Assembly (NCBI GenBank): GCA_010356995.1
Contig: ML996691.1
Span: 1,432,174 to 1,490,829, forward strand
Source of the DNA: Trichodelitschia bisporula
Lineage: Eukaryota
DNA length: 58,656 bases
Reading direction: 5' to 3'
The position numbers were made by a program, and so were the translations under genes. Numbering within the stretch: the stretch's first letter is position 1; each line of letters starts with the position of its first letter. Positions 4,443 through 50,901 of the stretch are shown one piece after another. Below the pieces are notes generated by a model. It was not told the origin of the DNA and ran no database searches. It saw nothing but the letters and a program-made list of their open reading frames with translations.

Positions 4443-7400
4443 ATGACGCGCAGAGAAGTGGCCGATCGCCATAGCTCGACCGCTAGCTCCAGCGCCGACA
4501 GCTGGAAGTCCACAGACACCATCAAGGGCAGCTCTTTTGCCCAACAGCAGCGACGCTCCACGCCTATGAGGGTTGCGACCAACGACAAGGACATCAGGTG
4601 CGTCGTGTCTTTCGTTGTCTCCCCCCGCCGCCGTGTGAGACTTTGCGTCGGAGACTTGTCTCTTTCGGCGTGTCTTGCGCGCGTCGAGACGGAACCTCCA
4701 GGCGGCGGATTCACGCGCGTTCGAACTGCCTCTGCCGTCGCGCATCGCATTCGCCGCTCCCCAGTCCCATCGCTGTTCCATGCTCCCATGCTGACTCGTC
4801 CCTAGAGGAAAGGATTATGAGATCTCGCCCGGCACCACAATGCCCTACCCCTCGCCGCCCCCATCCTCCCGTACTCCCATTCCCAATGCCATCGCACCGT
4901 GGGAGACCTCGCGCTCCTCTAGTTTCGGCGACTACCGCAAGGAACTCTCGGCGCTAGAACCGTCAGGTGGTCGCACGCCCATCCCCTCCATAAACCGTCA
5001 GCCGCCGAGCGCGTCGTCCCCCGCTGCCCACTGGTCCGGCGGCCCGTCAAACGGCAGGGACAACAAGGTCCACATGTCGTCCGTCTTTGGCGCCGGCAGC
5101 AGCTTCTTCAATGATTCCACCGAGGATGTCGGACAGCTGTCTCCTGGCTTTCGGCCCGGCAGCTCGCAGGAGGACATGGTGTTTCCGGACGACCACCGGC
5201 GCCCGTCGATTGCGAGCGCGACGACGGTGAGCAGCATTGGGTCCAAGTCGAGCATGAACCGCAATCAGCACAAGAAGCTGCAAGGCTTCTTTGGCGACGA
5301 ATTCCCTGGCTTCGGCGCTCAGCAGGCGGGCTCCGATTCAAGTCTCCCCGCCGGTGCCGCACCCTTTGTGCCTGGTAAAGGCCTCGATCCGCGCCCGAAT
5401 AAGCGCATTCGCAATAACTCGCTCAACAATACGAATCATGGGCAGCAGCTGAGCAGGCCCGACTCGCCGTCGAGCTTCACGCGGCCGCGCACGCCGTTCG
5501 CGCCTGAAGTGGCGCCCTGGGAGCATCAGGATCTGGTAAGCTCCCCCTGCTGTAAGCGCAGAATGACAGTATATCTCGATACGTTGCGGATGCGCGCATG
5601 TCAAAGACACTGATGTACTGACCCGCCTTTTCTCACTACTAACGTCTGCAGGAGGCGAATGCCGGCTCGGACAAAAACTCCGTCAACAGCAAGACCTCTC
5701 GCCACCAACACCACTCGCACAAGTTGCACCTCCCAGGCCACCGCCACACCCGCAGCAAGGACGAGCCGAAGACAACCGACGTAGGTGCGCCCCTTCGCCA
5801 GGCCATCAGCAGGGAGGACAGTGGTGCAAACTTTCCCGGCCGCGGGGTGCAGTTTCCCTCGGCCATGAGCTCCATGTCAACACTCGTCGGGGGCCGGCCC
5901 ACGAGCCCGACCCCCAGCGCCCACAGCAGCAACTATTCCACCAAGTCTCCAATGCCAGGCTCACACTCAGGCAAGCGTTCCCTCTTCTCCAAGATTCGCC
6001 GCCGCGATAAGCCGGACCGCGCGGAGGCCCTTCGCGATGCACCATCCGCCACCTCGAGCCCTGGCCTGCAACAGCCGCGCTATGGCAAGGCGCCTCAAGC
6101 CGATGCCGCTGCGCCGAGCGGACGCAAGAAAGATGCAGGCGGCGTGTTGCAACGCGGCGCGGGTTTAGCGCCGGCGGCATCGTCGACGCCCCGCGAGGGC
6201 CAGAAGCGCGAGCATGCCCGCTTGCCGTTTAAGAAGAAGAATACGTACGACCAGCCGCCGCCTACGCGCGACCCTAACGACGTGGACACGAATCCCGGCA
6301 CCACGCCTGCTCTGTGGAATCTGGATACGGATCTGCTGCATATGGAGGGCATCATTAGCATGCGCCCGCCGCTGACGCCGCCGGCCGGTGCCGACAAGAT
6401 CTTCTCCGGTTGGCCGCCTGACGAGGCGCCGGGCCCGAAGGAGCCGGAGGCGAATACGGCGGCGTGGGATGCGCCTGAGTCGTGGGCGGTTAAGAAGGCG
6501 GCGGATGAGAATATGGCAAGGTTGAGGGAGCTGGACGAGAATGGTTTGCCGCTTAAGGATGAGAATGCTGGTCCGCCTTATTGCGTGCGCATTTTCCGCG
6601 CGGATTCGACTTTTGCGGTGCTGTCGGTGGGGATTAATACGACGGTGTCTGAAATTATTGGGTTGATTGGGAAGAAGAGCTTTTTGCAGGATGACCTGGA
6701 TAACTATCACATTGTGATGCGGAAGCACGACACTTCGCGGCAGTTGCAGCAACAGGAGCGGCCACTTGTGATTCAGCGGCAGCTACTGCTGCAGGCTGGG
6801 TATACGGAAGCGGACCGCATTCCGGATGTGGGACGGGAGGATAACAGCTATCTCTGTCGCTTCACCTTCCTGCCGGCCAAGATGAGCGGCTACTCTAGCT
6901 TGGAGAAGGATCCAGGCTTCAGCAAGATGCAGAAGTTCTCGCACATCGACCTGCAAGGCCGCAACCTGATCACCATCCCGATCACCCTCTACCAGAAGGC
7001 GACGGAGATCATTTCGCTGAACCTCTCACGGAACCTGTCGCTCGATGTTCCGAAGGACTTCATCCAGGCTTGCACCAATCTGCGCGAGATCAAGTACACG
7101 AGCAACGAGGCGTGGAAGCTGCCGCCGAGTATATGTCTCGCAAGCCGGCTGACGATGCTTGATGTCTCGAACAACCGACTGGAGCAGCTCGAGCACGCGC
7201 AGCTGCACAAGCTGCAAAGCTTGATCAGTCTGCGGCTATCGAACAACAAACTCACATATCTGCCGAAGAACATCAGCCAGTTCAAGCAGCTGCGGAGCCT
7301 CAACGTGTCCTCGAACAACCTCTCCGAGTTTCCGGACTACATGTGCGACATGGACACGCTGGTGGACCTGGACATCAGCTTCAATTCCATCTCCCAACTT

Positions 7401-10400
7401 CCGCAGATCGGCAGGCTCAAGTCGCTGGAGCGGCTGTGGGCCACGAACAATAAGCTCTCCGGGCCCTTCCCGCCGTCGGCGTGTTACCTCGAAAACCTAC
7501 GCGAGGTGGACGTGCGGCACAATGCCATTGACAACATCGATGTGCTCGCAGACTTGCCGCGCCTCGAGTACCTGATGGTCGGCCACAACTCTATCTCGTC
7601 CTTTGTAGGCACCTTCCCTACGATCCGTGTGCTGCTTATGAACCACAACCCGGTCACGCGCTTCAACATCGAACTGCCAATTCCCACCCTGTCAACCCTG
7701 AGCTTGGATAAGGCAAAGCTGGCGGCGCTGCCAGACGATCTCTTCCAGAAGATCCCCAACCTCACCAAGCTGATCCTCGACCACAATCACTTCGTCTCGC
7801 TCTCGCCGCAAATCGGCAAGCTTACAAAGCTAGAGCACTTTTCCATTGCGAAGAACCTCCTCAGCAGTCTGCCGCCCGAAATCGGTCGCCTCGTCGAGCT
7901 GCGCTACCTCGATCTGCGTGAAAACAACCTCAACTCGCTGCCACCGCAGATATGGTTCGCGCGCCGCCTCGAAACGCTCAACATCTCGTCCAACGTGCTC
8001 AACGCCTTCCCGAAGCCCGGCGCCCCGCTCCCCGCGGCTCCGGACTCGCACCCCTCGACCCCGATCGGTACGCCGTCTACCAGCCGCGCCCCGACTGAGG
8101 ACTCGCTCGGCTCGCTCGAGGACTTTGCCGCGCGCCGCCCGAGCCAGGCTAGTGGGTATCTGAGCGCCGGTGCTAGCTCCGGCGGGAGCCGCAAGGGGTC
8201 TATCGGCGGCTCGAGCGTGGGGCCTAGTGTCCGCAAGGCGTCGGTTGTGTCGCGCATGTCGGAGGGCACTACGGTTGCGCCGATCAGTCGGAAGGATTCG
8301 AGTTTGTCGACGAGAATGATGACGACGTTCGCGGGGAGTTTGAGACATCTCTATCTTGCGGATAATCGGCTGCAGGATGAGGTGTTCGACGAGCTGGCGC
8401 TGCTGCCGGAGTTGCGCATCTTGAATCTCTCGTATAATCTGTTGTATGACATCCCGCCGCGCACGATTCGCCGCTGGCCGCAGCTCGTGGAGCTGTACCT
8501 CTCCGGCAACGACTTCACTGCGCTACCGGCGGAGGATCTCGAGGATATGAGCTCGTTGAAGGTGTTGCACATCAACAGTAACAAGTTCCAGGTTCTCCCG
8601 GCCGAGCTAGCCAAGATCCAGAAGCTCGCCGTCATGGACGTGGGCAGCAACGCGCTCAAGTACAACGTGTCCAACTGGCCGTACGACTGGAACTGGAACT
8701 GGAATCACAATCTCAAGTACCTGAACCTCAGCGGTAACAAGCGGCTGGAGATCAAGCCCCAGGGCCCGTACTCGCAGATGGGTACTGGGGGGAAGAATCT
8801 TACCGACTTTACCTCGCTTACGAAACTGCGCGTGCTGGGGCTTATGGACGTCACGCTCATGGTATCCTCCGTGCCGGACCAGACGGAGGACCGGCGCGTG
8901 CGCACCGCCGCTTCGACGGTGGGCAGCATGGCGTACGGCATGGCCGACACGCTCGGCCGCAACGAACATCTCTCCACCATGGATCTCGTCGTCGACCGTT
9001 TCCGGAGCCACGACGACGAAGCCATCGTCGGCATGTTCGACGGGCAGGCGCTGGCCAGCGGCGGGTCCAAAATCGCAAAGGCCCTGTACGAAAACTTCAA
9101 GAACCGTTTTACCGAGGAACTGGACAAGCTCCGCGCGAACGAGTCCCCGGTCGACGCGCTCCGCCGCACCTACCTGGGGTTGAATAAGGATATTGCGCTG
9201 GCGGCGAGTGTGTCGGACAAGGGCCCGAATCGCGGGAATGTGCTTGGGCTGGAGCTGGATGAGGATGAGGTGCACTCCGGGTGTGTGGCCACCGTGCTGT
9301 ACCTCAAGGAGATGGAGCTGTACGTGTCCAACGTCGGCGACGCCACCGCGCTACTCATCCACTCCGAAGGCGGGCATAAGCAAATCACCCGCAAGCACGA
9401 CCCGACGGATAGCACCGAGCGCGCACGCATCCGCGAGGCCGGCGGGTTTGTCAGCCGCCACGGCAAGCTCAACGACGTCCTCGAAGTGTCCCGCGCGTTT
9501 GGCTTCGCGCACCTGACACCCGCGGTCATCGCCAGTCCGCATGTAGCGCATATCACGCTCAGGGATACGGATGAGATGATTATCATCGCGAGCCGCGAGT
9601 TGTGGAATACGATGAGCCGCGATTTTGCGGTGGATATGGCGCGTTCCGAGCGCGGGGACCTGATGCGCGCGGCGCAGAAGTTACGTGATTTGGCGATCGC
9701 GTTTGGCGCGAGCAGTAAGATTATGGTGCAGATTATAGGAGTGAGCGATTTGCGGCGACGAGAGAGGGCGCGGTTTCGCACGCATAGTATGAGTATGGGG
9801 CCCTCCGCGCTGATTGAGGAGTTTGGTGGCAACCGGCGGAAACGTGCGAGACCGGATTGGGATTCGGAATTGGGGAGGCTGGAGAAAGAAGTCGAGGCAC
9901 CCACCGGGGATGTCAGCCTCGTGTTCACGGACATCAAGTCCTCGACGCTGCTGTGGGAGACGTACCCGATCGCCATGCGCAGCGCCATCAAAATGCACAA
10001 CCAGCTCATGCGCCGCCACCTGCGCCTCATCGGCGGGTACGAGGTCAAGACCGAGGGCGACGCGTTCATGGTCACCTTCCCCACTGTCACTAGCGCGTTG
10101 CTCTGGTGCTTCACCATCCAGACACAACTGCTCGAAGTCGCCTGGCCGCAGGAGATTCTGAGCAGCATTAACGGGCAGGAGGTGTGCGATGCGGATGGGA
10201 ATGTTATTTTTCGGGGGTTGAGTGTGAGGATGGGTATTCATTGGGGCCAGCCCGTGTGCGAAGTCGATCCCGTCACGAAGAGGATGGATTACTTCGGCCC
10301 GATGGTCAACCGCGCGAGCCGGATTACGAGCGTGGCGGATGGCGGGCAGATTACTGTTTCTGCGGATTTTATCGCGGAGATACAGCGCCTGCTCGAGACG

Positions 10401-11157
10401 CACATTGAGAGCGATCGGAGCGCGAGTACGGGGAGCGAAGAGGCGCTGGCTGAAGACGCGTTAACCCAGTCCATCCGCCGCGAGCTGCGCAGCCTCTCGA
10501 GCCAGGGCTTCGAAGTCAAGGACCTAGGCGAGCACCGCCTGAAGGGCCTCGAGAACCCAGAGTACATCTACCTGATGTATCCGCACGCACTGTCCAGCCG
10601 GTTGCAAGTGCAACAGCAGCGCGCCGAGGCAGAAGCCGCTGCTGCCAGCGCCGCGAGCGCGGGGACGAAGATGCGCGAGAGTCAGCTTACGATTGATACG
10701 GAGCATGTGTGGGAGTTGTGGAATATTAGTCTTAGGCTTGAGATGTTATGCAGCACGCTTGAGTGTCCGGGGAGTAAGGCGTTAAAAGCGCCTGAGACGG
10801 CGCTTTTGGAGAGGATGAAGCAGCAGGGGGGGGAGATTACGGATCGGTTTTTGGTGAATTTTGTGGAGCATCAGATTAGTCGGATTGAGGTATGTTGGGT
10901 CCTGAGTGAAGGTGTGGGTTTGGATTGGAGATGTGGGCTAATTGCTGGGACAGACGTGCATTAATACGCTTGCGCTGCGGAATTTGGTCAATCCGTTCCG
11001 CGAGGGGATGCTGAGTCAGGCGTGTCCGATGGAGGATGTTTTTGCGGTGTTGACGGGGCAGTTGGGTGAGTTGGCGGCGTTGAGGGAGAGTGCGGCTGCG
11101 GCGGCGGAGGGGTCGGACTCAGAGGACGGGGGCGGGTTCATCATTGAGGATTCGTAG
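4443..11157 (+). CDS. CYR1: Fungal adenylate cyclase (G-alpha-binding region, Ras-association, LRR, PP2C-like and class III cyclase domains)
   Basis: Exons 4443-4597, 4806-5535, 5652-10889 and 10954-11157 join in frame across GT..CTRAY..AG introns. Motifs: KKLQGFFG, CVRIFRADSTF, long LRR array, YDWNWNWN, PP2C-like region, SLVFTDIK...GGYEVKTEGDAFMV...RMDYFGPMVNRASR. Confidence 0.97.
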
Positions 11158-18561: not shown

Positions 18562-19654
18562 ATGGCGACGCACAAGCTCGTCGTTTCTCCCCTCCCTCGT
18601 GTCTTCCTCAATGGCATCACACACGCCTCCCGCCCTACCGCGGCGGTCCTCATCCAGCACCACTCGCAGCCATTCTCAACGACTCCACGCACCTCACTGA
18701 AGGAATTCTTCGTCGAACATGACCACCCGCATATCAGAAAGACGGAAGCCGCCTGGCAACATCCAATGTTCGTCCATCCCAGCCCCTGCCTTACCTCACC
18801 ACACCCCAACCACTAACACGCACACACACAGCTACACTCCCGAACAAATGGCCGCCGTCTCCATCTCCCACCGCGAAACCCGCAACATGTCCGACCGCGT
18901 CGCCCTCCTCGCCGTACGCTTCCTCCGCTCCTCGCTGGACTTCGTCTCCGGCTACCGGCACGACAAGGCCGTAGCCGACGGGACCAAAGCCGCCGGCGCC
19001 GCAACACAGGCCTTCGCCATGGACGAGAAGAAGTACCTAGTGCGCAACATCTTCCTCGAGTCCGTGGCCGGCGTGCCAGGGATGGTAGCCGGCATGCTGC
19101 GGCACCTGCACTCGATGCGGCGCATGAAGCGCGACGGCGGGTGGATCGAGACGCTCCTCGAGGAGAGCTACAACGAGCGCATGCACCTGCTCATATTTCT
19201 CAAGATGGGCGAGCCGGGCTTCTTCATGCGTGCGGCGGTGCTGGGGGCGCAGGGCGTGTTTTTCAACGCGCTGTTCTTTTCGTACCTCGTTTCGCCGCGG
19301 ACGGTGCATCGCTTCGTCGGGTACCTGGAGGAAGAAGCGGTCATCACGTATTCGCGCGAGATAGCGGATCTGGACGCGGGGAAGCTGCCGAAGTGGGAGA
19401 AGATGCGGGCGCCGGAGATTGCGGTTTCGTATTACAAGATGGCGGAGGGCAGGCAGAGTATGCGGGATTTGCTGCTGCATATCCGCGCGGACGAGGCGAA
19501 GCATCGCGAGGTGAATCACACGCTTGGGAACCTGGATCAGAAGGAGGATCCGAATCCGTATGTCAGCACGTACAAGGATGAGGGGAAGCCGCACCCTTGC
19601 AAGGATATTCGGTTCTTGAAGCCGAAGGGGTGGGAAAGGGAGGAGGTGATTTGA
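18562..19654 (+). CDS. AOX1: Mitochondrial alternative oxidase
   Basis: [41 protein letters not shown] and [13 protein letters not shown] motifs; presequence-like N-terminus; intron 18768-18831. Confidence 0.97.
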
Positions 19655-33051: not shown

Positions 33052-35661
33052 ATGTAAGTCATTCCGCCTTCTCCTAGTAACTGCTGACCCTCTAGGCATC
33101 GTGCGAAAACCGCGCCGGCGGTTCCCGGCCAGCCGAGTGACGGAGCGGCCCAGCCGAAGGCCCAGCGCCTCTATGGAGGTACGCCGCAGTTCATCGATTG
33201 CTTGACGAAGCCCTTTCGCTGCCCCGGAACTGCGGTGAAGCGCGCGCACACAGATCGGCCAGCGCGGAAGCGGCGTAAGATCTCATACGCGGATGCCGAC
33301 GGCAGCGTTGAAGATGGCGACAAGCCGTACACAAACGAGGACCGACTGGCGCTTTCGACGCGCGACGTGAACAAATTCCCCGTGTTTAAGCCAAAGGACA
33401 AAGAGTCGATCTTTAAGCAGCGCTTTTCTGTGCCTCTACTGAACAAGGACGCCGGTACTTATAATGCAGGCCGTCCTGCGCCGCTGCTGGGGATGCGCCA
33501 GGGCAGCGTGTTTGTTGTGAAGCCGCTATACGATCCGAGCGGAGAGTTTGCGATTGTTCTGTACGACCCTACGATAGACGATAAGCCTGCTGTCCCCGAG
33601 GTGGCGGAAGAGAAGGAGGAGGAGGTGGTCAAGTTGGACGCACCTTTGGTCCACAAGAGTTTGGCCGATATCTTGGGATTGAAGAAGAAGGTGGAGGAGC
33701 GGCCACGCGTGCCGGTTGTTATCGATCCTCGCCTGGCCAAGGTGCTGCGACCGCATCAGGTGGAGGGTGTCAAGTTCCTGTACCGGTGTACGACCGGCCT
33801 CATTGACCCCAATGCCAACGGCTGCATCATGGCCGACGAGATGGGCCTGGGGAAAACGGTACGTACTGCGTATCCTCAATGTCCGCGCTAACAACCATAG
33901 CTGCAATGCATAGCCTTGATGTGGACTCTTCTCAAGCAGTCGCCCGAGGCCGGGAAGTCAACGATTCAAAAATGCATCATTGCCTGCCCGGCTAGTCTCG
34001 TGCGCAACTGGGCCAACGAACTTGGTATTTTTCATTGAAAAAGTTCATGGCAAAGCTAACTTTGGAAGTGAAATGGCTGGGAAAGGATGCAATTACACCG
34101 TTCGCTGTCGATGGCAAAGGCACAAAGGAAGAACTCACCCAACAGATGCGCCAGTGGGCCATTGCATCGGGGCGCACGGTGGTGCGGCCTGTGCTCATCA
34201 TCTCGTACGAGACGCTGCGGCTTTACGTCGAGGAGCTCCGCAACGCCCCTGTTGGCCTGCTGCTCTGTGACGAGGGTCATCGCCTGAAGAATTGCGACAA
34301 TCTCCTTTATGCCGCCCTCAGCAGCCTCAACGTGAAGCGGCGCGTGATTCTCTCCGGCACACCCATCCAAAACGATCTTTCCGAGTACTTTGCGCTCCTG
34401 GACTTCGTCAATCCTGGCTATTTGGGAACCCGCATGGACTTTCGCAAGCAGTTTGAACTTCCGATTCTCAAGGGTCGCGACGCTGCGGGATCGGACAAGG
34501 ACGTGGCAAAGGGTGAAGAGCGCCTTCGCGAGTTGCTGGCGCTTGTCAACAAGTTCATCATCCGGCGGACGAACGACCTTCTCTCCAAGTATCTGCCTGT
34601 CAAGTACGAGCACGTCGTCTTCTGCCACCTGGCACCGTTCCAAAAGGACCTCTACAATTACTTCATCAGCTCGCCTAGCGTCAAGGGTCTTCTCCGCGGC
34701 AAGGGCAGTCAGCCACTTAAGGCCATTGGCATGCTCAAGAAGCTTTGCAACCACCCGGATCTACTCGACCTACCTTCCGATCTGCCAGGCTGTGAGGAAT
34801 TATTCCCCGACGATTATGTCCCGAAGGATGCTCGCGGTCGGGACCGTGATGTCAAGGTGTGGTACTCGGGCAAGATGCAGGTACTCGATCGGTGTGTATA
34901 CGAGCACCCCCGGCTACGATTGACGCTAATGAAACAGAATGCTTACGCGCATCCGACAAGACACCAACGACAAGATCGTTCTGATCAGCAACTACACGCA
35001 GACTCTCGACGTCTTCGAGAAGCTCTGTCGTCACCGAGGTTACGGTTCGCTGCGTCTGGACGGCACAATGAACGTGAACAAGCGCCAGAAGCTAGTGGAC
35101 AAATTCAACAACCCTGACGGCCAGGAGTTTGTGTTCCTCCTCAGCAGCAAGGCGGGTGGCTGCGGCCTGAACCTGATCGGCGCCAACAGGCTCGTCCTGT
35201 TCGACCCGGACTGGAACCCTGCGGCTGATCAGCAAGCCTTGGCGCGCGTCTGGAGAGACGGGCAGAAGAAGGACTGCTTCGTGTACCGCTTTATTGCTAC
35301 GGGCACCATCGAAGAGAAGGTCTTCCAGCGCCAGTCGCACAAGCAGGCGCTCTCGTCGTGCGTCGTCGATTCGGCCGAGGATGTCGAGCGCCACTTTACA
35401 CTTGACAGCCTGCGCGAGCTCTTCCAGTATCTGCCGAATACAACGAGCGACACCCATGACACGTTTAAATGCAAGCGGTGTAAAGCGGACGGCCGACAGC
35501 ACATCAAGGCGCCCGCACTGCTCTACGGTGACACAAGCACTTGGAATCACTTTGTCAACGACGGTGAGAATGGGCCACTTGGTCGCATCCAAGACTTGCT
35601 TCTGCGACAGGAGACAAGTGCAAAGGATGTGAGCGCGGTGTTCCAATACATTAGCCATTGA
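33052..35661 (+). CDS. RAD54: DNA repair and recombination ATPase Rad54
   Basis: [97 protein letters not shown]. Start codon apparently split AT(33052-33053)/G(33096) by a 42-nt intron. Confidence 0.96.
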
Positions 35662-40393: not shown

Positions 40394-40966
40394 GGTGTGA
40401 GGACGGATACGGTGGGCAGATTAGTGCTGGGGAGGTAATCAACTGGACGCGAGGTAGACCGAATTCAAACCTTTCTCAATGAGATCTGCTACAATCGTGA
40501 TTTGCGCATCGCGTGGGTCGAGTTCCGTGCCTGGACCTGAACGCTAATGTTCCGATCTCCTTCCCGCGGGCCCGAAGGGCACTGGGAAAAATTGTGGCCT
40601 CCCTGTTGGGGAGTTTTGTGGGCTGACGGGGCCATGATCTTTCGAGCGGTTGAGCCGCGCAGCCCTAACCTGACGTTCTCCCGGGGAGAGCACGCGAGGG
40701 CCAGAGCCGCGGGAGAGGCCGGCTTGGCGGGATCGGATGAAGGCTGACGATAGGGCTGGAACAGAGGCGCAGGGCTAACGTGGGGGAGTAATATGCGGCA
40801 GATTGAAGCATGAGTTAGGCGAGATTGCCGCGCCAGAGCCCAGAGCGCTGCAATCATGGTGAGAACAGAGGTCACGGCGCCATTAAATAGGTCCATCGCG
40901 CGGTAGCTCTAAACGGCGAGCATTCACTCCTTCAACTGCTTCGAGCGTTCAATCGTTACATTCGTC

Positions 40967-42172
40967 ATGAAGTACCAGATCATCGCAGCGGCGCTGTTCG
41001 CGCAGGCCGTCCTGGCTGTGCCGCAGATGCCCACCAAGGGCACAGGCGCGCCTAAGGGTACGTCCTCGCCGAAGGGCACCACGTCGAAAGGCACCACACC
41101 AAAGGGCAAGGGTGGCGCGGGCGGCCTCGGCGGTCTCCTATCCCTCCTCGGTGGCGGCAGCTCCGGGCCCGGTGGCCTCGCAGGCATCGCAGCGTCGTTC
41201 GGCCTCGACCCCAACTCCGAGGTCTCAGACATGGTATGTCAGACCTTCAACGGCAACAGTACGCTCGGTAACATGCTCGGGAGCATCTTCGGCAGCCCGA
41301 TCGGGAAAGAGCCAGGGGAAGAATGCGTCAAGGACACGAGCGGCGGGTCCGGGCCGTACAAGGCCGCCTACTTCGGCGAGCCGTCGCTGGAAAACCACAC
41401 TATCTATGCGCCTAAGACGCCGCCGCCGCCGGGCGTCAAGTTGCCGGTTATTGTCTGGAGCAATGGGTTCTGCATGAGTGCTGGGACTATGTTTGCGAAT
41501 TTCCTGAATGAGATTGCGAGCCATGGGTTCTTCATCGTTTCCAATGGCGCGGCCAAGGGCGGCCTCGGCGGCGGCATGACGACCTACAAGGAGCTGATCA
41601 AGGCGATGGATTGGGTGACGACGAACCCGGCGGTGAAGAAGTACGGCGACATCGACATCCACAACATTGCTGTTTCTGGCCAGTCATGCGGTGGTATGGA
41701 GGCGGTAAGTTGACCTGCTGGCGTCGCGATCCTATCTGACAAATCAGTACCAAGCCAGCCCTGACCCTCGCGTCAACTTGACGGTCCTTTTCAACAGCGG
41801 AAACTTTGCCGGGTCCACGCCGGGGGCTATGGCGAAGCAAACCAAGCCGGTTGCATGGTTCCTCGGTGGGCCAAATGATATGGCACAGAAGAATGTAAGT
41901 GCCCCGAGCATACCGATCTGCATTGGCTGATTTTCCAGGGTGATGCCGACTACAAGAACCTCGGCGCCGTACCGGCACTCAAGGGCAGCATCGACGTCGG
42001 CCATATTGGCACCTACTACCAGAAGGGTGGGGGCAAGATCGGCAGGGCCGCGGTGGCCTATTTCAGCTGGAAGCAGAAGGGCGAGACCAAGTACAAGGCC
42101 GAGTTCTGCGGCACCGGCGGGGAGCTGACCAAGGTGGGCTGGAAGTTCGAAGCGAAGAACGGCATGTGCTAG
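40967..42172 (+). CDS. Secreted alpha/beta hydrolase (chlorophyllase/dienelactone-hydrolase-like esterase)
   Basis: Signal peptide; HTIYAPK, LPVIVWSNGFC, LNEIASHGF, nucleophile elbow GQSCGG, LGGPND, GHIGTY; two introns near 41705-41746 and 41895-41938. Confidence 0.85.
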
Positions 42173-42197: not shown

Positions 42198-44113
42198 TCA
42201 ATAAAACATTGGTGATATCTTCCCCGCAGACCGCTCCATAATGCGTTCCGGTAGAAGCACCTCGTACACGTGCTTGACCCAGGTAGCGAGCAGGTGGCGT
42301 GTCTCTACCGGGTCGATGATTTCCTCGACGCCGAAATTGTTGGCCGTGCGGACCGGATTCATCAGCCGTCGGTACTCTTCGTCAAGCTCCCGGTAGCGCT
42401 CTTTGCGCTTCTCGAGACCTTCCTTGCGCTCAATTTCCTTGAGTTCAAACGAGTGTCCCACATCGATGCCGCCAGCAAGAGGTAGGCTACCCCACTCGCC
42501 GCTGGGCCAGGCGACGCAGAATCGCGGTTCACGGCAGCTGATCATGATGCCGCCAGCGACACCGTACGAGCGACGCGTGACGACGGAGAAGACAGGCATC
42601 GTGGTTGCGTGATACGTCGTTGCGAGCGAAATGCCGTGCCGCATGGTGGCCGTGCGCTCGGCCACGGTGCCGATAGCGTACCCGGGGATGTCGATGAATT
42701 GCACCAAGGGAATATTGAACACATCGAGGAACTTAAGATGACGGGTGAGCTTCTGCGAGCCGAGGGCGTCAATCGCGCCGGCGTTGACTAATAATCAGTG
42801 AGATGAAAGGGGTGTAAAGAAAAGCCTTACCTTCACAGTCGAGTGTAATTATGCCCACAGGGCGCCCGCCAATCCGGGCGAGCCCGCAGATGGCAGTCGT
42901 ACCCCAGTACCTGCCAATCTCAAACCAAGATCCAGTGTCGACGATGGTGGTAATGACTTTACGTGCATCATACATGCGCTCGCGCTTGCGCGGGATGATG
43001 GTCCGCAGCTCAGGGTTGACGCGGTCGATAGGATCGTCGCAAGCAATCACAGGCGGAAGTTGTAGACCATAATTTGGCAAATAGCTTAGGACAGTACGCA
43101 TCTGTTCGAAGCATTCCTCTTCGGACGCCGCGAGATTGTCGATGGTTCCGTTTGTGCAGTGCATGTTGGGGCCGCCCAGGTCCGTGAAGCTGAGGCCTTC
43201 CTCGAATGTGGCATCTGATTCTCAGCAAAGTTCGGTGTGGGTACGAGACCTTACTTGCGACGACACTGGGACCCGCATTAAACAAGCTCCCAACGTCTGC
43301 AGCCATGACGGAGAAGTGGCAGGAGACCACGCGGGCGGCTCCCAGTCCGATAGCCGGTCCCAGTACGGCGCCCAAGTTCGGGATGCCCATGTTGAGCTGC
43401 TTGACCACAACGTTGAACGTGCGAACTGTTGGAAGATACGACCAACCGGCGGTGCGGATTGTAGTGACGGAGCCGCCGCCAGACGAGCCATCCACGAGCT
43501 TCACCACGGGCAGCTTGAGGGCCACCGCAAGCTCCTCGATGTACATCTACTCAGTCAGTGGCGCTTTCATATGTCCGAGATCGAACACACCGTCTTCGCC
43601 ATGAGAGCACCATCCGCATGTCCCGCTCGAATGGAATAGTCGTCAGCTGTAAAGAGAATTGTCCGACCACGCAGCTTGCCGAAGCCTTGAACATTGTTTG
43701 AGGGAATGTCTGGGCGGATGAGCGAAAGGGCGCCACAACTGGATAGCAACGAACTCACACTCAATGGGCTCCTCGCGCGCATCGCCCACCTTTTTCCACT
43801 TGACCGTGCCGCTTACGGAGCCGACCTCCCGAAAGGAGCCTTTGTCCAGCAGTGCGTCGATGCGTTCACGCACCCAAAGCTTGCCCGCCTTCTTCTGCCG
43901 CACATAACCCCTGTTGTTCAAGTCTGGCGTGACCGCAATCTTCTGGAGTGTCGCGATCTGGCCTAGGATGTCCGAGTAGTCGGCGGGAAGTTCGGCTTTG
44001 TCGTCCTTTCGTCGTCGGCGCTTGGGGGATGAAGGGGAGACATGTTGTTGAACTTGCGCGAGGCGATCTTTGGCTTTGGAGCTGCTGGAGCTGGAGTCAC
44101 CACCGTCGCCCAT
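42198..44113 (-). CDS. Acyl-CoA carboxylase carboxyltransferase (beta) subunit
   Basis: GKLWVRERIDALLDKGSFREVG, ADDYSIRAGHADG, LVDGSSGGGSV, LFNAGP, VDTGSWFEIG, FIDIPGYAIG, AWPSGEWG, VEEIIDP; several short introns. Confidence 0.92.
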
Positions 44114-44270
44114 GGTCGCGTCGGCACCTACGGTAATGGAGAAGTGCGAGGGAGTGTATAGAGAGTATAAACTGGGATGGACGTACGCCGATCAATGAGC
44201 CTAATGTCTACATGGCATTTATGCGGAGGTGACATGGGGAGGTGGTGGACGCGGAGAAAGGTCCAGGGGA

Positions 44271-44276
44271 CCTCGG
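44271..44276. promoter_or_regulatory. CCTCGG FarA/FarB-type core in the bidirectional carboxylase promoter
   Basis: Single hexamer near the middle of the 320-bp gap 44114-44433; CreA-like GCGGAG at 44223 and 44251. Confidence 0.4.
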
Positions 44277-44433
44277 CTGCCGTGCCTTGACCCCACGTTC
44301 TTCTCGTAGTTCCTCTAATGCATCACCGAGACCGACGACGCGTGCCGACACCATGTCTTTTGGATCTCCTGCACGAACATCTCGTGCGTACATATTGAAA
44401 CCAGACTGATAGTTTTCGTCCAACCTCCCGGCC

Positions 44434-46504
44434 ATGTCTCCGCTCACCTCGCGCCCGTCCCCGCGCCCCATCCGCCGTCTCCTCGTCGCCAACCGGTACG
44501 GCCCGCCCCACTTGGAGCTCTTGAGCTAACTAACCGCACCACTAGCGGAGAAATCGCGACTCGCATTCTGAATTCCGCACGGGAGCTGGACATTGAGACC
44601 TTCGCCGTTTACACCGCTGATGACACAACACACACCCACGGCGCGGCCCACAGCGTCAAGCTTTCATCTCCATCGTCGTACTTGGACATTGCGGAGTTGG
44701 TGTCGGTGGCCAAGGAACACGCCGTTGATGCGGTCCATCCGGGTTATGGCTTCCTATCGGAGTCGACCGAGTTTGCGCTGAAGATGTGGGAGGCCGGCGT
44801 GGCAGTGGTCGGCCCAGGCTGGGATATTCTCGCGCAGACGGGAGACAAGTTGCAGGCTAAGAAGCTTGCGGAGCAGGGTACGAGCTATGGATGCACTCTC
44901 ACTGCGGGTTTGCTAATTTTTCAGCTGGCGTGCCGGTCCTCGCAGCTCTCGAGAGCCCGACGAACAACATTGGCGATCTGCGGGCCTTCGCGACGCACGC
45001 CGGTTATCCCATCATGGTCAAGGCGGTAGATGGAGGTGGTGGTCGTGGGATACGACTGGTCCGGTCGGAGGAGGAGCTGGAAGCGGCAGCTAAGCGGGCG
45101 ATTGAGGAGAGCCCGTCGCGCCAGGTCTTTGCGGAGAAGGCGGCCGTAGATGGGTATCTTCATGTTGAGGTACAAATCGTCGGTGATGGCCGAAACGTGG
45201 AGCACCTGTGGGAGCGGCAGTGTAGCATCCAGCGGCGGTACCAAAAGGTGGTCGAGATTGCGCCATGCATAACGCCAAAGAGGGCCTTCGTTGAGAACAT
45301 CATACAGTCTGCGGTGCGGATGGCGAAGAGGGTGGGTCACTCGGTGTCGCTGCGATTATGGCTAACGTTACAGGTCAAATACTTTTCCCTCGGTACCTTT
45401 GAGTTTCTCGCAAACCCAACAACTGAAGAGTTTTACTTTCTCGAGGTGAATCCCCGCCTGCAGGTGGAGCACACTATCACGGAAAGCATCTCGAGTGTAG
45501 ACTTGGTGCGGGCCCAGCTGCTCCTCGCTCAAGGCGCGACCCTTGAAGAGGCCGGAATTCGTCGCAACACGGCCAAACCCTTGCTCTTCTCCTGCCAGCT
45601 CCGCATTACAGCCGAAAACGCGAGTGACTGGTCGCTCAGCATCGGTCGAATCCAAAGCTTCCAGCTTCCATCTGGGAACGGCATCCGCGTCGACACGAAT
45701 CTGCTCAACGGTCACGCTTCCGTGGTTAGCTCGGACTTCGACAGCTTGCTGGCCAAGGTCATTGTCACCGCACCGAGTTGGCCCGAAGTGGTGCGCAAGT
45801 GTCAGCGCGCCCTGCAGGACACGCACATATCAGGGGTTAAGACCAACTTGAACATTCTCCGTGGCATTGTTGCGCATCCAGACTTTGTGGCAGGAGACTG
45901 CGATACACGCTGGCTGGAGACAAACCATGCCGCCCTGCTGGCAGCGGGAGATAAGCTAACGGCAGCGGTCCCAGCACTCGCAGTGTCACAGAGCGTGGGA
46001 CTATCGGCCTCGGCCGCTGCAGCGCCCATATTCCGCCCTGGCGATGCCTGGACCTTATCGCTTTCGGCACCGGGCAAGGAACCGCGCACGGCCCACTTGC
46101 AGTTGGCACGTCTGCTGCGAAATGAGTTCCCTGCAGCGCTGTCCGCCAACTTCCTCTACTCCACTGCCACTGAACAAACCGTGCCTCTGACGGTTTCGCT
46201 TGCGAGCACGTCTGCATCGGCTGGCGCCGCAACATCGACGCACCGGCGCGGTGACCCGGCAAACCCGAAACAAGTGGTCATTCCATTCCCCGGAAAGCTG
46301 GTGGAGGTGTTGGTGGATGTGGGGGATGTGGTAAAGGAGGGTGATGTCATCTGCGTGGTGCAGCAGATGAAAATGGAGCTGGAGGTGCGGGCCGGGCGCT
46401 CAGGGAAGGTGACCTGGCTGCTGGAGGCGGAGGACGGGGAAGACGTGGGCGAGGGTGTGCTGGCAGCAGAACTCGACGTTGATGGGAGGGAAGCCAAACT
46501 GTAG
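44434..46504 (+). CDS. Acyl-CoA carboxylase alpha subunit (biotin carboxylase plus biotin carrier), ending in PTS1 AKL
   Basis: RRLLVANR|GEIA, HPGYGFLSES, KAVDGGGGRGIRLV, ERQCSIQRRYQK, EVNPRLQVEH, biotinyl domain QQMKM, C-terminus REAKL*; introns include in-frame 45332-45373. Confidence 0.93.
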
Positions 46505-46582
46505 AGTGGGTCCACAGGTCCCGCTTAAATTAGACTATGGATAGACGATATCTCCAGCGCTATCAGACCGCCTATATAAAAA

Positions 46583-47904
46583 TCACTCGATTTCACCGAG
46601 AAGGTCATGGTCGCCTTGCCCCTGCGCCTTGTCCTGCGCCTCGTCTGCGACTTGTTCCGCTTGCATCCACGTAGCGGCCCTGAGAGCCTCAGTCTGGATT
46701 TCCCATATGGGCTTTGCCATTTCCAGCAAGGTGTCTCCAAACTCTGCGACAGCCTGGTTGACGGCGTCCTTTGAGCTGTCAAACACTGCTGTAGACATGC
46801 CGAGTTCCGGAAACGTGCATGCCATCCACGCACGTCGCAGCTTTTCGACCATCCCCTTGGCCTCGGCCGAGTCAGGTCGCAAGTTTTTGGCGACGAGATA
46901 GAAGGAACTACTCTCTCTATGTGCGCACGTCGGCTTGAACAGCTGCAGGTCGGAAAATTTCGCAAAGCCCGCCAACAACGCAAACACGTTCCACTGGTAC
47001 GCCCGGTGCATGAGTGCGATGATGGTCCCTCCGATGTGAACGCGCTGCAGCGCGATGGCCATCTGCGAGCACATCAGGCGGGTGGACTCGCAGCTCTCAC
47101 GATACTCGGCGCGGCCATGGGTCCTCAGCACCTGTCCGTCGCACAGCACCAAATGGTAGTTTGTCGGCGCGGCAAACGGCCACGGGCATAGTAGCTCGTC
47201 ATTGTCCGGATGAACGCGGGCAGCCTCTATAGCTTCCGGCACGTTTGCCATCCCTAGTTCGTAGCCCAGAAGAGTCACATCGCGGAACGAAACTTGGACT
47301 CGCGAATCCCGGCGATCGTACGGAACATGTATAGCGTATCCACCTTTCTCCCGGCCCAGAGTAACGGCATTTGCCAGCATTAAAAGATATTTCTTAAGGG
47401 CGTAGGCGAGATAGCCGCCAGGAGCCATACAGAGGTCCAGCACGTCCGGACGCCGGTTGCTGAGCTCGAAGGCACCTGTAGCCTGGTTGAGTTCCTCTGC
47501 AATGTTCTGCATCGTCAAAAATATGCTCCGTTGCGTAGTGAAACCGGCTTTGTCAACTTTGGCGCGCTTTTCGGCGTAGTGCTTGTCGCCAGTGGGGCAG
47601 TTGCTCCCCTTGGCTTGTAAGCGGTTGACCATGACGAAAACGGCTAACTAACCTTGGCCATCCATGCCATCAACTGCTCGAACTCCGAGGCTTTGTGGAG
47701 GAAAAGCTGCAACGCATCGTCTGGAGTATCCAACGAGATCATGTCGTATGAAGAGTCCTCGGGGACGACAGGTGTATCAGTTAGGGTCGTAGCTTGTAGC
47801 GCCTTGGTCAGATTGTCCACCCAGCCATCACCGGGCTGGAACTTCTCGTTTCCGAGTCGCTTTTCGAGCGAGGTTGGACTAATGTTCGTGTGGTTCGGCT
47901 CCAT
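46583..47904 (-). CDS. FtsJ-like SAM-dependent methyltransferase
   Basis: VLDLCMAPGGY, LVLCDGQVLRTH, GGTIIALMH, LFKP..HRESSSFYLVAK; intron 47609-47652. Confidence 0.88.
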
Positions 47905-49005
47905 GGTGACTGCTCGGGATGCCGGGGGTAGCAGAAGTCGGGGAACAGGTTGCAAACGCTGCGGTGGGCGGCGGAGGCGCAGGATGCTGAAGACGAGTGG
48001 ATATCAAAGACTCTGAAATGGCGGGGAGATCAGCGAGAGCAAGGAGTGCAATGGAGAGTAATGCTGCTCCGGTGCAAAAACGTGGGATACAGTTCAGGTT
48101 CGTGACGGCGGAGTGGACAATTACTACACTCAAAGACATGGACCATCGCGCCTTCCGTGGGAATTCGTCATGCCGGCCGTAATCGATGACTGCGTTGGAA
48201 GGTGCGGGTTGTTTGCTGGCGAAGTTCGCGCCTTCCCGATGAAGCCATTCGGTCGGCAAGTGCGAGTTGTTCGGGGGCAACCATCGTGGCATCGAGGGTT
48301 CCCGAAGGAGGCATTTCCGTCTGGTGACGAGAGGGTTGTCGATATCGGAGATTAAGGATTCATGGGAGCCAAAGAATGAAGGAGGAAAGGTTCTTGGAGC
48401 TGTCAGCTGTGGATCAAAAGATGAAGTCAAGAGTTTGAGCTTCTATGGCAACTGCTGCAATAGCTTACGACTCCCAGCAACGAAAGAGCCCATACTAGTT
48501 CTAGTTCTAGTTGATATCAACCCGAATCTCATGGGCTGAGGACCAGGGCCATGAATGAGGCTCCTCCCTTCGATACCAGAAATACAGGAGTTGGGCGCAA
48601 CAAGAACATGACCGTGGCCATCTGGTGCTTCGTTAGACGCGTTGTTGTCAGAACACAACACTACGTCATGTGTTTTACGCCATTATGGAACAAAACACCG
48701 ACAAATGCCGGCGCCGTGATGGATCGCCAAGCCGGCACCAGGAACGCCTCCACGCCAAACATCCTAGCTCTACCCCGCCAACCGGCTGCCGTCCCATTCT
48801 CGAGTTCCAATTGGCTCGAGCTTCCAGTTCACAAATGCGGGGTAACGAACAAATGCATTAGCGAGGAAATCGATGCCCGGAGTGCCGGTATTTATGGAGG
48901 GTGAGGGGTCAATGAAATGCTTCCGCTTGAGCCTTGCCCCTTGGTCGTCGCCGAATTGACGTCAATTTCTCCCTTCATCAGGATTTAATCTCATCGGTCG
49001 CAATC

Positions 49006-50901
49006 ATGGTCATCTTCAAGTCCCGGATGCCCGATATACTCCGTAGGTGATGCGGAGGAGCCGCAAGACCGAGACGGAGCTGACGCGAGTAGTGCCGACA
49101 GAGCTCACCGTCTGGGACTGGGTGTTCGACAGTGCCTTCTCGCCGCTCCAGCGGTTCCCAGAGGGCGAGCTTCGCGGATACCAGAATGCCGTAACAAAGG
49201 AGCGAGTCAACTGGGCCCAGGTCAAGGAGTACTCGACGTACATCAGCACGGCACTGGTGCGGCGATATGGACTGAAGGAAGGAGAGACGGTGTCGCTGTT
49301 CAGCCAAAACTCTATATGGTACCCCGTCGTTATGCTAGGCGCGCTGCGCGCCGGTGAGTGCCATATGTTGCGTTATGGGGCTCGGCTGATGTTTCAGGCG
49401 CAAAAATATCGGGCGCGTCACCGGCGTACAACGTTGATGAGATGGCCTACGCCCTCAAGACGGCCGACGCCAAGTTTCTGATGACCTCACCGGTGTCCAT
49501 GGAGGTTGCGACCGGTGCGGCAAAGAAGGCCGGCGTCCCACTGACGAACTTGTTCCTCCTCGAGGGGACGCTGGAGGGGTACTTGACAGTGCACGAACTC
49601 ATTGAGATCGGCCGCAGTTACGGCCCGTCCGGGCAAGTGCCGGCGTATAAGATTCCGGCAGGGAAGAAGAACAAGGACGTGTGCGGTTTCCTATCGTTCA
49701 GCTCCGGAACGACTGGGCTGCCTAAAGCAGTAAGTGCATACGATTATTGCGGAATGTTGCTAAGAAACAGGTTATGATCTCTCACCAAAACGTTATTGCC
49801 CAGTGCCTGCAGGTGCAGCAGTGCACTCCGCCCGAGACGGATAAAGTCCTCGCGGTGCTACCGCTCTTTCACAGTGAGTTGCATTGACATGAGCCGCCTG
49901 CAGTCGCTTACCCGGCAGTTACCGGTCTTGTGCACCAGTTGCATCTGCCAATTCTCATAAATGCTGAAGTGCTTATGACGCCGACGTTCACCATGCCGCT
50001 CATGCTGTCTGTGATCCAAGAGTACAAGCTCAAGGAACTGCTGCTCGTGCCGCCGATTCTGATTCGGCTAGTACGCGATGCGGTCGTCAGCCAGTACGAT
50101 ACGTCGTCGATCCGCCGCTTCTCATCGGGTGCCGCGCCGCTGTCCCAGGAAGTGATTGAACTCATGGCTCAGAAGTTCCCCGCCAGTGCCACGGGCACGC
50201 CGTACGGACAGACGGGGCTGAAGCAAGGGTACGGCATGACCGAGTCATGCTCATGCATCACTGCATTTCCGCTGCACCGCGTTACCGGGTACAAGTACGG
50301 AAACTCGGTGGGTGAGGCGGTGGCAAACACCGAGATCAAGATTCTGAAGGAGGACGGATCCGAGGGCGACGTTGGGGAGGCGGGTGAAATCCTGGCGCGC
50401 GGCCCGCAGATCACCATGGGCTACCTAGGCAACGAGAAGGCCACGAAGGAGACGTACGAGCCGGACGGCTGGCTGCACACGGGCGATCAAGGCATGATTG
50501 ACCCCGACGGCATGGTGTGGATTCTGGACCGCATAAAGGAGATGATTAAGGTCAAGGGCACGCAGGTCGCGCCCGCAGAGCTGGAGGACCTACTGCTAGG
50601 GCATCCCAAGGTCGAGGACTGCGCCGTGCTCGGCATGCCCGACGACTACGCCGGCGAGCTGCCCAAGGCATACGTCGTGCTCAAGGCGGGTGTGCCACGG
50701 GGTGTTGCCGTCGGCCGTGAGCTGATCCAGTACGTGAAGGAGAAAAAGGTGCGCTACAAGTGGATCAAGGAGGTGGAGATTGTCGACGAGATTCCGAAGA
50801 GTGCATCCGGCAAGATTCTGCGGCGCATTCTGCGCGACACAGCGGGCGTCGCGGACAATGTGCGGGTACGGGACGCGGTGGGAGAGAAGGCGATGCTGTA
50901 A
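49006..50901 (+). CDS. 4-coumarate-CoA-ligase-like acyl-CoA synthetase (ANL superfamily)
   Basis: FSSGTTGLPKA, LPLFH, QGYGMTES, WLHTGD, DRIKEMIKVKG.QVAPAELE, IPKSASGKILRR; C-terminus EKAML*; four short introns. Confidence 0.93.

Follow-up and report, generated by a model that had tools for sequence, protein, structure and literature searches.

What enzyme is encoded by a head-to-head pair of carboxylase genes in the fungus Trichodelitschia bisporula, and in which cell compartment does it work? The two genes lie in a 58,656-nucleotide stretch of contig ML996691.1 (assembly GCA_010356995.1, positions 1,432,174 to 1,490,829), which was analyzed in full and is called the window here. One encodes an alpha subunit with biotin carboxylase (BC) and biotin carboxyl carrier protein (BCCP) domains and the other encodes a beta subunit with a carboxyltransferase (CT) domain. 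An earlier sequence-only reading had joined this pair to a nearby gene for a 4CL-like acyl-CoA ligase in a peroxisomal cluster, which was proposed to activate and carboxylate a branched-chain, terpenoid, or aromatic acid by analogy to bacterial geranyl-CoA carboxylase (GCC). Our analysis supports that reading in part: its sequence observations are confirmed, and alpha and beta are probably the subunits of one biotin-dependent acyl-CoA carboxylase, a heteromeric enzyme active in the peroxisomal matrix. We assign the pair to the heteromeric biotin-dependent carboxylases because alpha has the BC and BCCP domains with their motifs and beta has both halves of the Carboxyl_trans domain. In the mechanism that we propose, alpha would carboxylate its own biotin using ATP and bicarbonate, and beta would use the carboxylated biotin to carboxylate an acyl-CoA at its alpha-carbon, so that the product would be a 2-carboxyacyl-CoA, either malonyl-CoA or an alkylmalonyl-CoA. 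The C-terminal AKL of alpha, a type 1 peroxisomal targeting signal (PTS1), would direct that subunit to the peroxisome, and an N-terminal nonapeptide that resembles a type 2 signal (PTS2) would direct beta there. We infer the peroxisomal location, the assembly of alpha with beta, carboxylation at the alpha-carbon, and the candidate substrates from sequence.

The genes stand where the sequence-only reading had put them, with the carboxyltransferase and BC/BCCP genes head-to-head across 320 bp and the ligase gene starting 2.5 kb beyond the alpha stop codon, and the gene models bear out the AKL end of alpha, the RLAQVQQHV peptide of beta, and the AML end of the ligase. Pfam domain matches across the locus had E-values of 1e-13 to 1e-45, and the five-exon beta model is identical at every residue to the deposited 579-residue protein P0121. 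All 11 predicted introns (four in beta, three in alpha, and four in the ligase gene) have canonical GT..AG ends and are skipped in spliced contigs from one public run (X2; no listed run is recorded as RNA). Because the X2 contigs skip every one of these introns, we conclude that transcription and splicing of the beta, alpha, and ligase genes follow the models. In this run, the beta transcript contig begins at position 44146 and the alpha contig at ~44321. The 42-nt alpha intron at 45332–45373 has a CTAAC branch site and is in frame and stop-free, and a spliced contig shows its removal. Searches with the three proteins matched the deposited beta and ligase of T. bisporula at 100%, and among the 120 best matches to alpha none reached 100% (best 65%); the alpha gene may be absent from the public annotation or modeled otherwise there, despite the spliced contigs that cover it.

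Alpha, with a calculated mass of ~70 kDa, matched the Pfam families Biotin_carb_N (94.8 bits), CPSase_L_D2 (153.3 bits), Biotin_carb_C (100.9 bits), and Biotin_lipoyl (49.4 bits), and its BC domains scored above their cut-offs. It contains the catalytic motifs GGGGRG (the glycine-rich loop) and EVNPRLQVEH as well as an MKM biotinylation site at residue 599, and M-K-M is invariant across 30 alpha homologues. The two-subunit biotin-dependent carboxylase proposed earlier is supported. Inspection of the N-terminal sequences, for which no targeting predictor was run, revealed no mitochondrial presequence on alpha or beta. Alpha is judged to be without one because its start lies 13 residues ahead of the conserved RRLLVANRGEIA motif; alpha homologues of full-length appearance begin at most ~25 residues from RRLLVANRGEIA, and the others are N-terminally truncated models.

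The affinities of alpha differ from those expected of an ordinary propionyl-CoA carboxylase (PCC). The BC domain of alpha homologue P0001 scored 360 bits against pyruvate carboxylase among PDB sequences, compared to 286 against the alpha subunit of methylcrotonyl-CoA carboxylase (MCC), 283 against AccA3, and 240–276 against PCC alpha subunits. By BLAST, the closest match of the window alpha was the BC half of a fused Streptomyces protein, P0379 (42% identity, 313 bits), with MccA at 268 bits and PccA at 236 bits. An AlphaFold2 model of P0001 had a mean pLDDT of 79.6 with confident BC and BCCP domains, between which the model places a helix (residues 449–467), a disordered segment (470–511), and three strands (514–551) at pLDDT 57–73; the last alpha exon modeled alone was poor (pLDDT 59). 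In a fold search with the P0001 model, the BC chains of pyruvate carboxylase, acetyl-CoA carboxylase (ACC), MCC, and long-chain acyl-CoA carboxylase (LCC) tied at Z scores of ~49–52, a result in which the BC domain dominates and the families are not separated.

To place beta, we compared it with solved structures, family models, and a wide set of relatives. Carboxyl_trans was matched on three open reading frames that bear beta exons, covering profile positions 84–472 of 493 and both CT halves, and residues 72–551 of P0121 align to full-length solved beta subunits. In phmmer searches of the PDB, P0121 scored 229 bits against an archaeal ACC beta subunit (7w5u), 216 against 1x0u, 212 against 1vrg, 206 against PccB (6ybp), 201 against the stambomycin enzyme MccB (5inf), 200 against human PCCB, and 197 against Streptomyces coelicolor PccB. 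Scores against the MCC beta subunit 3u9r (140 bits), LCC 4rcn (132), the GCC beta subunit 5ikl (130), and human MCCB (125) were lower. The analogy to GCC is thus not upheld, as beta reaches 125–140 bits against MCC and GCC subunits compared to 197–229 bits against subunits of the ACC/PCC type. The best PDB match of the last beta exon was 5fif, and the sole NCBIfam match of beta was mmdA (TIGR01117) at 257 bits, compared to a cut-off of 998.8.

In an exhaustive search of 1.84 billion representatives, the relatives of beta were, nearest first, its fungal family cluster (63% identity), a eukaryotic protein ending in SKM (44%), and a chytrid protein (45%), followed by bacterial single-chain BC-BCCP-CT proteins of ~1,100 residues (36–42%), bacterial stand-alone CTs of ~520 residues (37–41%), and protist BCCP-CT fusions. 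A quick IQ-TREE search under LG+G4 gave a tree of 67 CT rows (two fragments were dropped, and 4rcn is not among the rows), which was rooted on two MCC-type references from annotated plasmid operons, which have MCC-type pathway genes as neighbors. The fungal beta family formed one clade (support 100) with the SKM-ending protein as its sister (support 99) and then the chytrid protein (support 96), and it was nested deep within the remainder of the tree, away from these references. This family, the bacterial stand-alone CTs, the protist fusions, and the fused proteins, including P0372/P0525, P0379, P0388, and P0392, made up a 41-row clade (support 100, stem 0.52); PccB of S. meliloti, encoded beside PccA and methylmalonyl-CoA mutase, fell in a separate 13-row clade (support 99). 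Both the tree and the PDB scores place beta outside the MCC clade, in keeping with the earlier expectation that it would not nest there, and the beta clade appears from these placements to be separate from PCC, MCC, and GCC. A Protein Atlas look-up returned only the family's own cluster and generic bacterial PCC-like clusters, and when prokaryote genomes were scanned with an alignment of the fungal beta sequences, none of the 600 pattern matches was a relative. Rhizodiscina lignyota has two beta homologues, P0122 and P0235, on contigs of 860553 and 1995651, and only the contig of P0235 is shared with the alpha homologue P0049; this pair suggests a duplication of beta.

Targeting signals at both ends of the system bear on the compartment. 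PTS1 tripeptides follow the consensus [SAC][KRH][LM]. Among the 120 best matches to alpha (55–65% identical to the query open reading frame and mostly from Dothideomycetes, with one from Xylariaceae), every one of the 120 listed has a C-terminal x[KR]L, which answers in the affirmative the earlier question of whether the alpha signal is conserved, and 88 end in [SA][KR]L. The endings were ARL in 47, AKL in 26, ERL in 13, SKL in 12, NRL in 7, PKL, SRL, and GKL in 3 each, VKL in 2, and four others in 1 each. For beta, motifs were counted in the 78 proteins of at least 550 residues among the 120 best matches. A relaxed pattern, [RK]-[LVIQ]-x5-[HQ]-hydrophobic, occurs within the first 80 residues of 77 of these 78 proteins. 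As controls, the N-termini of alpha (1 of 100) and of the ligase (0 of 73) almost never carry the pattern, and shuffling of the beta N-termini produced it in 4.8% of 15,600 sequences. The single homologue without the motif has an unrelated N-terminus and resembles a different gene-model start. The form R-L-x-Q-[VIL]-x-x-H-[ILVM] is present in 75 of the 78 full-length homologues, whose N-termini are otherwise variable, and in an alignment of 15 beta sequences R17, L18, Q20, and H24 are invariant and all other positions from residue 2 to residue 33 are conserved at less than 90%. Position 6 of the nonapeptide is S in 51 of 75 beta homologues and Q in the window protein, and position 9 across the family is I (42), L (18), or V (14). 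In beta, an acidic Ser-rich stretch precedes the nonapeptide, and RLAQVQQHV fits the looser PTS2 search pattern used in PMC8611851. As judged by this conservation, predicted peroxisomal targeting is well supported for both subunits.

Could the pair instead be an ordinary propionyl-CoA carboxylase, mitochondrial or cytosolic, whose terminal motifs are incidental? Most database names say so, the best-scoring solved relatives of beta are PCC and ACC beta subunits, and its best NCBIfam match is mmdA/TIGR01117. However, the mmdA score is far under the model's cut-off, beta lies outside the clade of S. meliloti PccB, the BC domain of the alpha family favors pyruvate carboxylase over PCC alpha, and both subunits lack a presequence and carry conserved PTS-type termini. 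A specificity position also departs from that of PccB. According to PMC5187497, an Asp (numbered 421 there) biases PccB toward short chains, and an Ala takes its place in a hexanoyl-CoA enzyme. In ungapped HMMER alignments of beta to 6ybp, 1vrg, and 5inf, the equivalent of PccB Asp422 is Gly463; among structures, this column holds Asp in 6ybp, Ala in 5inf, Ile in 1vrg and 7w5u, and Gly in 9j0c. The residue that tunes PccB to propionyl-CoA is therefore replaced in beta, and we regard an ordinary PCC as unlikely. A second determinant named in PMC5187497 is a Phe opposite MccB Gly161; its equivalent in beta falls in an indel loop where two HMMER alignments give either Pro197 or Val199, with Phe202 close by, and the assignment is ambiguous.

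Several observations weigh against a peroxisomal carboxylase composed of alpha and beta. The alpha tripeptides are non-canonical (ERL, NRL, PKL, and others) in 32 of the 120 homologues. The strict PTS2 consensus is R-[LVIQ]-x-x-[LVIHQ]-[LSGAK]-x-[HQ]-[LAF], and it describes 8 of the 78 beta homologues, with RLAQVQQHV deviating at positions 6 (Q) and 9 (V); hence, the beta signal proposed earlier is conserved in its relaxed form but not in its strict form. Directly after the PTS2-like motif comes a basic run, KRRRRK (residues 31–36, positions 44005–44022), which the beta homologues (P0122–P0240) retain together with a conserved L-P-A-D-Y-S-D-I-L-G-Q-I segment behind it; the run resembles a nuclear localization signal or perhaps marks a processing site. 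The chytrid relative P0371 (Synchytrium microbalum) has an N-terminal extension of ~158 residues and no PTS-like motif at either end. The compartment is predicted from motifs. In PCC and MCC, a BT domain links alpha to beta, but in the modeled alpha homologue the corresponding region consists of one helix, disorder, and three low-confidence strands, in which a BT domain is not demonstrable. The tree comes from a quick search under LG+G4 only. Finally, the Gly at the Asp422 column is the only specificity position of beta that can be read, and the neighborhoods of bacterial CTs in the sister clade are heterogeneous and yield no consistent pathway.

The next question is whether the ligase belongs to the same system. 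In the window, the alpha and ligase genes are not adjacent, as an FtsJ-like open reading frame without an NCBIfam match and ~1.3 kb without any family match intervene. In other genomes, alpha and beta stay together: their locus tags are consecutive in 8 genomes (for example, NX059_011314/15, EKO04_004469/70, and HBI56_057070/60), and they lie on contigs of equal size in 31 species, as compared by eye between tables. In Ascochyta rabiei and Epicoccum nigrum the contig sizes of alpha and beta differ, possibly reflecting different assemblies. The nearest ligase homologue, by contrast, is on another contig or at a distant locus tag in 28 of 28 other species, also compared by eye (for example, HBI56_028330 versus 057070, NX059_004691 versus 011314, and PV09_03340 versus 04713). 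The synteny expected by the sequence-only reading thus holds for alpha and beta and fails for the ligase, and its three-gene cluster is not supported. Among the 120 best ligase homologues, 118 have PTS1-like endings (AKL 49, AML 29, ARL 26, SKL 4, SML 3, ANL 3, PKL 2, TKL 1, and SKM 1). These comparisons indicate that the ligase is an independently conserved PTS1-tagged enzyme, linked to the carboxylase only in the T. bisporula genome.

A single peroxisomal pathway, in which the ligase would activate a branched-chain, terpenoid, or aromatic acid and alpha and beta would then gamma-carboxylate it as GCC does, could draw on the PTS-like signals of all three proteins, on the transcription of all three genes, and on one bacterial example from Tistrella mobilis (described below) in which a related CT gene is head-to-head with an AMP-binding ligase gene. 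Against such a pathway stand the unlinked ligase homologues, the FtsJ-like gene between alpha and the ligase, the low scores of beta against MCC and GCC subunits, and the position of beta on the opposite side of the root. Moreover, a Pfam scan of the 75 open reading frames of at least 133 residues in the 58-kb window found no genes for an enoyl-CoA hydratase, an HMG-CoA-lyase-like protein, or an acyl-CoA dehydrogenase, and hence none of the usual MCC/GCC pathway neighbors (isovaleryl-CoA dehydrogenase, methylglutaconyl- or isohexenylglutaconyl-CoA hydratase, and HMG-CoA lyase). With neither the MCC/GCC placement nor such neighbors, the branched-chain or terpenoid substrate suggested earlier loses its footing, and we consider the combined pathway very improbable.

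If alpha and beta do form a peroxisomal carboxylase, its substrate could be acetyl- or propionyl-CoA from beta-oxidation, a medium- or long-chain acyl-CoA, or something else, and we give roughly one third of the weight to each. Bacterial gene neighborhoods were also surveyed. On plasmid pTM3 of T. mobilis (L001 6969–11910), the gene for a 531-residue CT that is 42% identical to beta is paired head-to-head with one for an AMP-binding ligase; a fatty-acid desaturase gene follows the CT gene, and no BC or BCCP gene occurs within 9 kb. In a broader survey, a four-sequence alignment retrieved 80 loci, of which 50 full-length loci were examined. Enoyl-CoA hydratase genes were present in 15 of these neighborhoods, IclR regulators in 12, CoA-transferase III in 9, and thiolase in 9, together with transporters; no family occurred in more than 15 loci, and no BC gene was adjacent.

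Acetyl- and propionyl-CoA are end products of peroxisomal beta-oxidation, and a short-chain enzyme could convert them to malonyl- or methylmalonyl-CoA for export, detoxification, or local biosynthesis. The top PDB score of beta, against the ACC subunit 7w5u, fits this activity, and the broad retention of the family in saprobes and pathogens suggests a role in primary metabolism. However, beta has Gly at the Asp422 column, where among the aligned structures a smaller or non-acidic residue accompanies wider or longer substrates (for example, the Ala of hexanoyl-CoA enzyme 5inf, according to PMC5187497), the nearest bacterial relatives include single-chain proteins such as P0379, which matches LCC 4rcn over its full length, and known fungal users of malonyl- or methylmalonyl-CoA in peroxisomes are absent from the window. 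A short-chain peroxisomal enzyme is therefore a tentative proposal. Peroxisomes also hold pools of acyl-CoAs, and a medium- or long-chain enzyme could carboxylate these to 2-alkylmalonyl-CoA. The grouping of beta with the CTs of bacterial single-chain carboxylases points in this direction, given the 639-bit score of P0379 against 4rcn, as do the Gly at the Asp422 column and the ligase and desaturase neighbors of the Tistrella CT. On the other hand, the match of beta to 4rcn reaches just 132 bits, below its scores against PCC, the equivalent of Phe161 is not readable, and no downstream user of alkylmalonyl-CoA is evident. This longer-chain alternative is possible and, like the short-chain one, doubtful as it stands.

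A peroxisomal carboxylase would be a departure for eukaryotes. To our knowledge, all characterized eukaryotic biotin carboxylases are mitochondrial, cytosolic, or plastidial. Our literature search found no report of a peroxisomal acyl-CoA carboxylase and no papers on six locus tags of homologues, in agreement with the earlier statement that no characterized fungal example was known. We see an even chance that many ascomycete peroxisomes contain an ATP-consuming biotin acyl-CoA carboxylase of an old eukaryotic family, distinct from mitochondrial PCC and MCC and with relatives in diplonemids, an apusomonad, and other eukaryotes. If so, there would be an unrecognized peroxisomal route from the intermediates or products of beta-oxidation to malonyl- or alkylmalonyl-CoA, and a holo-biotinylated protein, ATP, and bicarbonate would be used within the organelle. 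A conserved enzyme whose two subunits carry a PTS1 and a PTS2, respectively, would bring a carboxylation reaction into the acyl-CoA metabolism of peroxisomes and would raise the questions of what the substrate is, what becomes of the 2-carboxyacyl-CoA, and how the matrix is supplied with ATP and bicarbonate. The result would also correct the names 'propionyl-CoA carboxylase beta chain, mitochondrial' and 'pyruvate carboxylase', which are widespread among the homologues. The family also has members in numerous plant pathogens, such as Parastagonospora, Bipolaris, Alternaria, Venturia, Ascochyta, and Plenodomus, and knockout and localization experiments are thus feasible.

The features of the locus are collected in the table below. 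The sequence-only reading had also drawn attention to a CCTCGG in the shared promoter as a possible FarA/FarB site. One copy is indeed present between the two genes, but the 46 copies in the whole window are close to the expectation of 44.9, and at least as many turned up in 45 of 100 shuffles. Because the window-wide frequency is at chance level, the lone CCTCGG in 320 bp carries no weight, and the argument from FarA/FarB is unsupported. A gene at 40913–42172 on the forward strand is convergent with beta and encodes a protein with a signal-peptide-like N-terminus, a low-complexity stretch rich in Gly, Ser, Pro, and Lys, and a weak chlorophyllase/hydrolase-type match (24 bits, with the cut-off at 26); the 4,686-nt transcript contig of beta extends past 42000 into the region of this gene. 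The other genes of the window, among them those at 5643–10961, 18701–19651, and 33088–35658, are ordinary housekeeping genes and encode an adenylate cyclase that carries LRR and PP2C domains, an alternative oxidase, a Rad54-type helicase, Pil1, an ABC transporter, AIM24, an inositol monophosphatase, and a peroxiredoxin.

Features of the carboxylase locus, in window coordinates
Feature	Position	Strand	Basis
Beta subunit gene, carboxyltransferase, 579 aa	42198..44113	-	Pfam Carboxyl_trans, deposited P0121, spliced contig
Beta exons (stop codon included)	44113-43759, 43709-43591, 43546-43255, 43214-42831, 42787-42198	-	
PTS2-like nonapeptide RLAQVQQHV, beta residues 17-25	44039..44065	-	
Divergent intergenic region, 320 bp ATG to ATG	44114..44433		
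CCTCGG, single copy in the shared intergenic region	44271-44276		
Alpha subunit gene, BC, short middle region, and BCCP, 643 aa	44434..46504	+	Pfam domains, splice enumeration, spliced contig
Alpha exons (stop codon included)	44434-44495, 44546-44877, 44925-45331, 45374-46504	+	
AKL, alpha C-terminus, PTS1 tripeptide	46493..46501	+	
FtsJ-like methyltransferase open reading frame between alpha and ligase, outside the carboxylase system	46583..47647	-	Pfam FtsJ, E 2.5e-13
4CL-like acyl-CoA ligase gene, 571 aa, ends AML	49006..50901	+	Pfam AMP-binding and AMP-binding_C; 100% match to P0241
Ligase exons	49006-49042, 49093-49353, 49398-49729, 49771-49873, 49919-50901	+	

How does the fungal pair compare with known systems? 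The 4CL/firefly-luciferase-like peroxisomal ligases (3a9u, 5bsm, and 7kyd) match the window ligase at 263–283 bits, and its homologues are likewise PTS1-tagged. For the carboxylase itself, the closest solved counterparts of beta are PccB and archaeal ACC beta subunits (6ybp, 1xnv, 7ybu, and 7w5u), which are also two-domain CTs of ~510–580 residues, score in the 197–229-bit range, and have a separate BC-BCCP alpha subunit as partner. Compared to these, the fungal beta is only ~30% identical, lies outside the PccB clade, and has Gly for Asp422; compared to PCC, it has an N-terminal extension of ~70 residues that bears the PTS2-like motif rather than a mitochondrial presequence, and the BC domain of its alpha partner resembles that of pyruvate carboxylase. 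MCC and GCC (3u9r/3u9s, 5ikl, and 8j4z) are likewise two-subunit biotin enzymes with an alpha of similar length, whereas the fungal beta scores poorly against them, sits across the MCC-type root, and has neither a liu/atu-type neighborhood nor a presequence. The stambomycin medium-chain carboxylase beta subunit (MccB/SamR0483, 5inf/5ing; PMC5187497) resembles the fungal beta in having a small non-acidic residue in place of the PccB Asp, Ala there and Gly here, although that enzyme is bacterial and serves secondary metabolism.

The single-chain carboxylases (LCC 4rcn and the 5h80/5fif domains) are related through the fused proteins P0372, P0379, P0388, and P0525, which count among the nearest relatives of beta outside the fungi (36–42%). 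Unlike these proteins, the fungal enzyme is split into BC-BCCP and CT portions, encoded by two divergent genes whose spliced transcript contigs are separate, its alpha has an extra ~100 residues before the BCCP, its beta matches 4rcn poorly, and it is eukaryotic and PTS-tagged. Protist BCCP-CT fusions that carry a PCC beta annotation (Thecamonas trahens P0399, Diplonema papillatum P0417, and D. japonicum P0413) belong to the same CT clade as the fungal beta. In these uncharacterized fusions, the BCCP is joined to the N-terminus of the CT and the PTS1 is on the CT protein, whereas in the fungus the BCCP is with the BC and the PTS2-like motif is on the CT. PMC8611851 treats the Diplonema PCC as mitochondrial and as part of wax-ester synthesis. 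AKL or CKL ends five of the six protist fusions (P0383, P0399, P0413, P0415, and P0417), and because of these endings a peroxisomal or glycosomal address would seem to recur in the protist arrangement of the domains.

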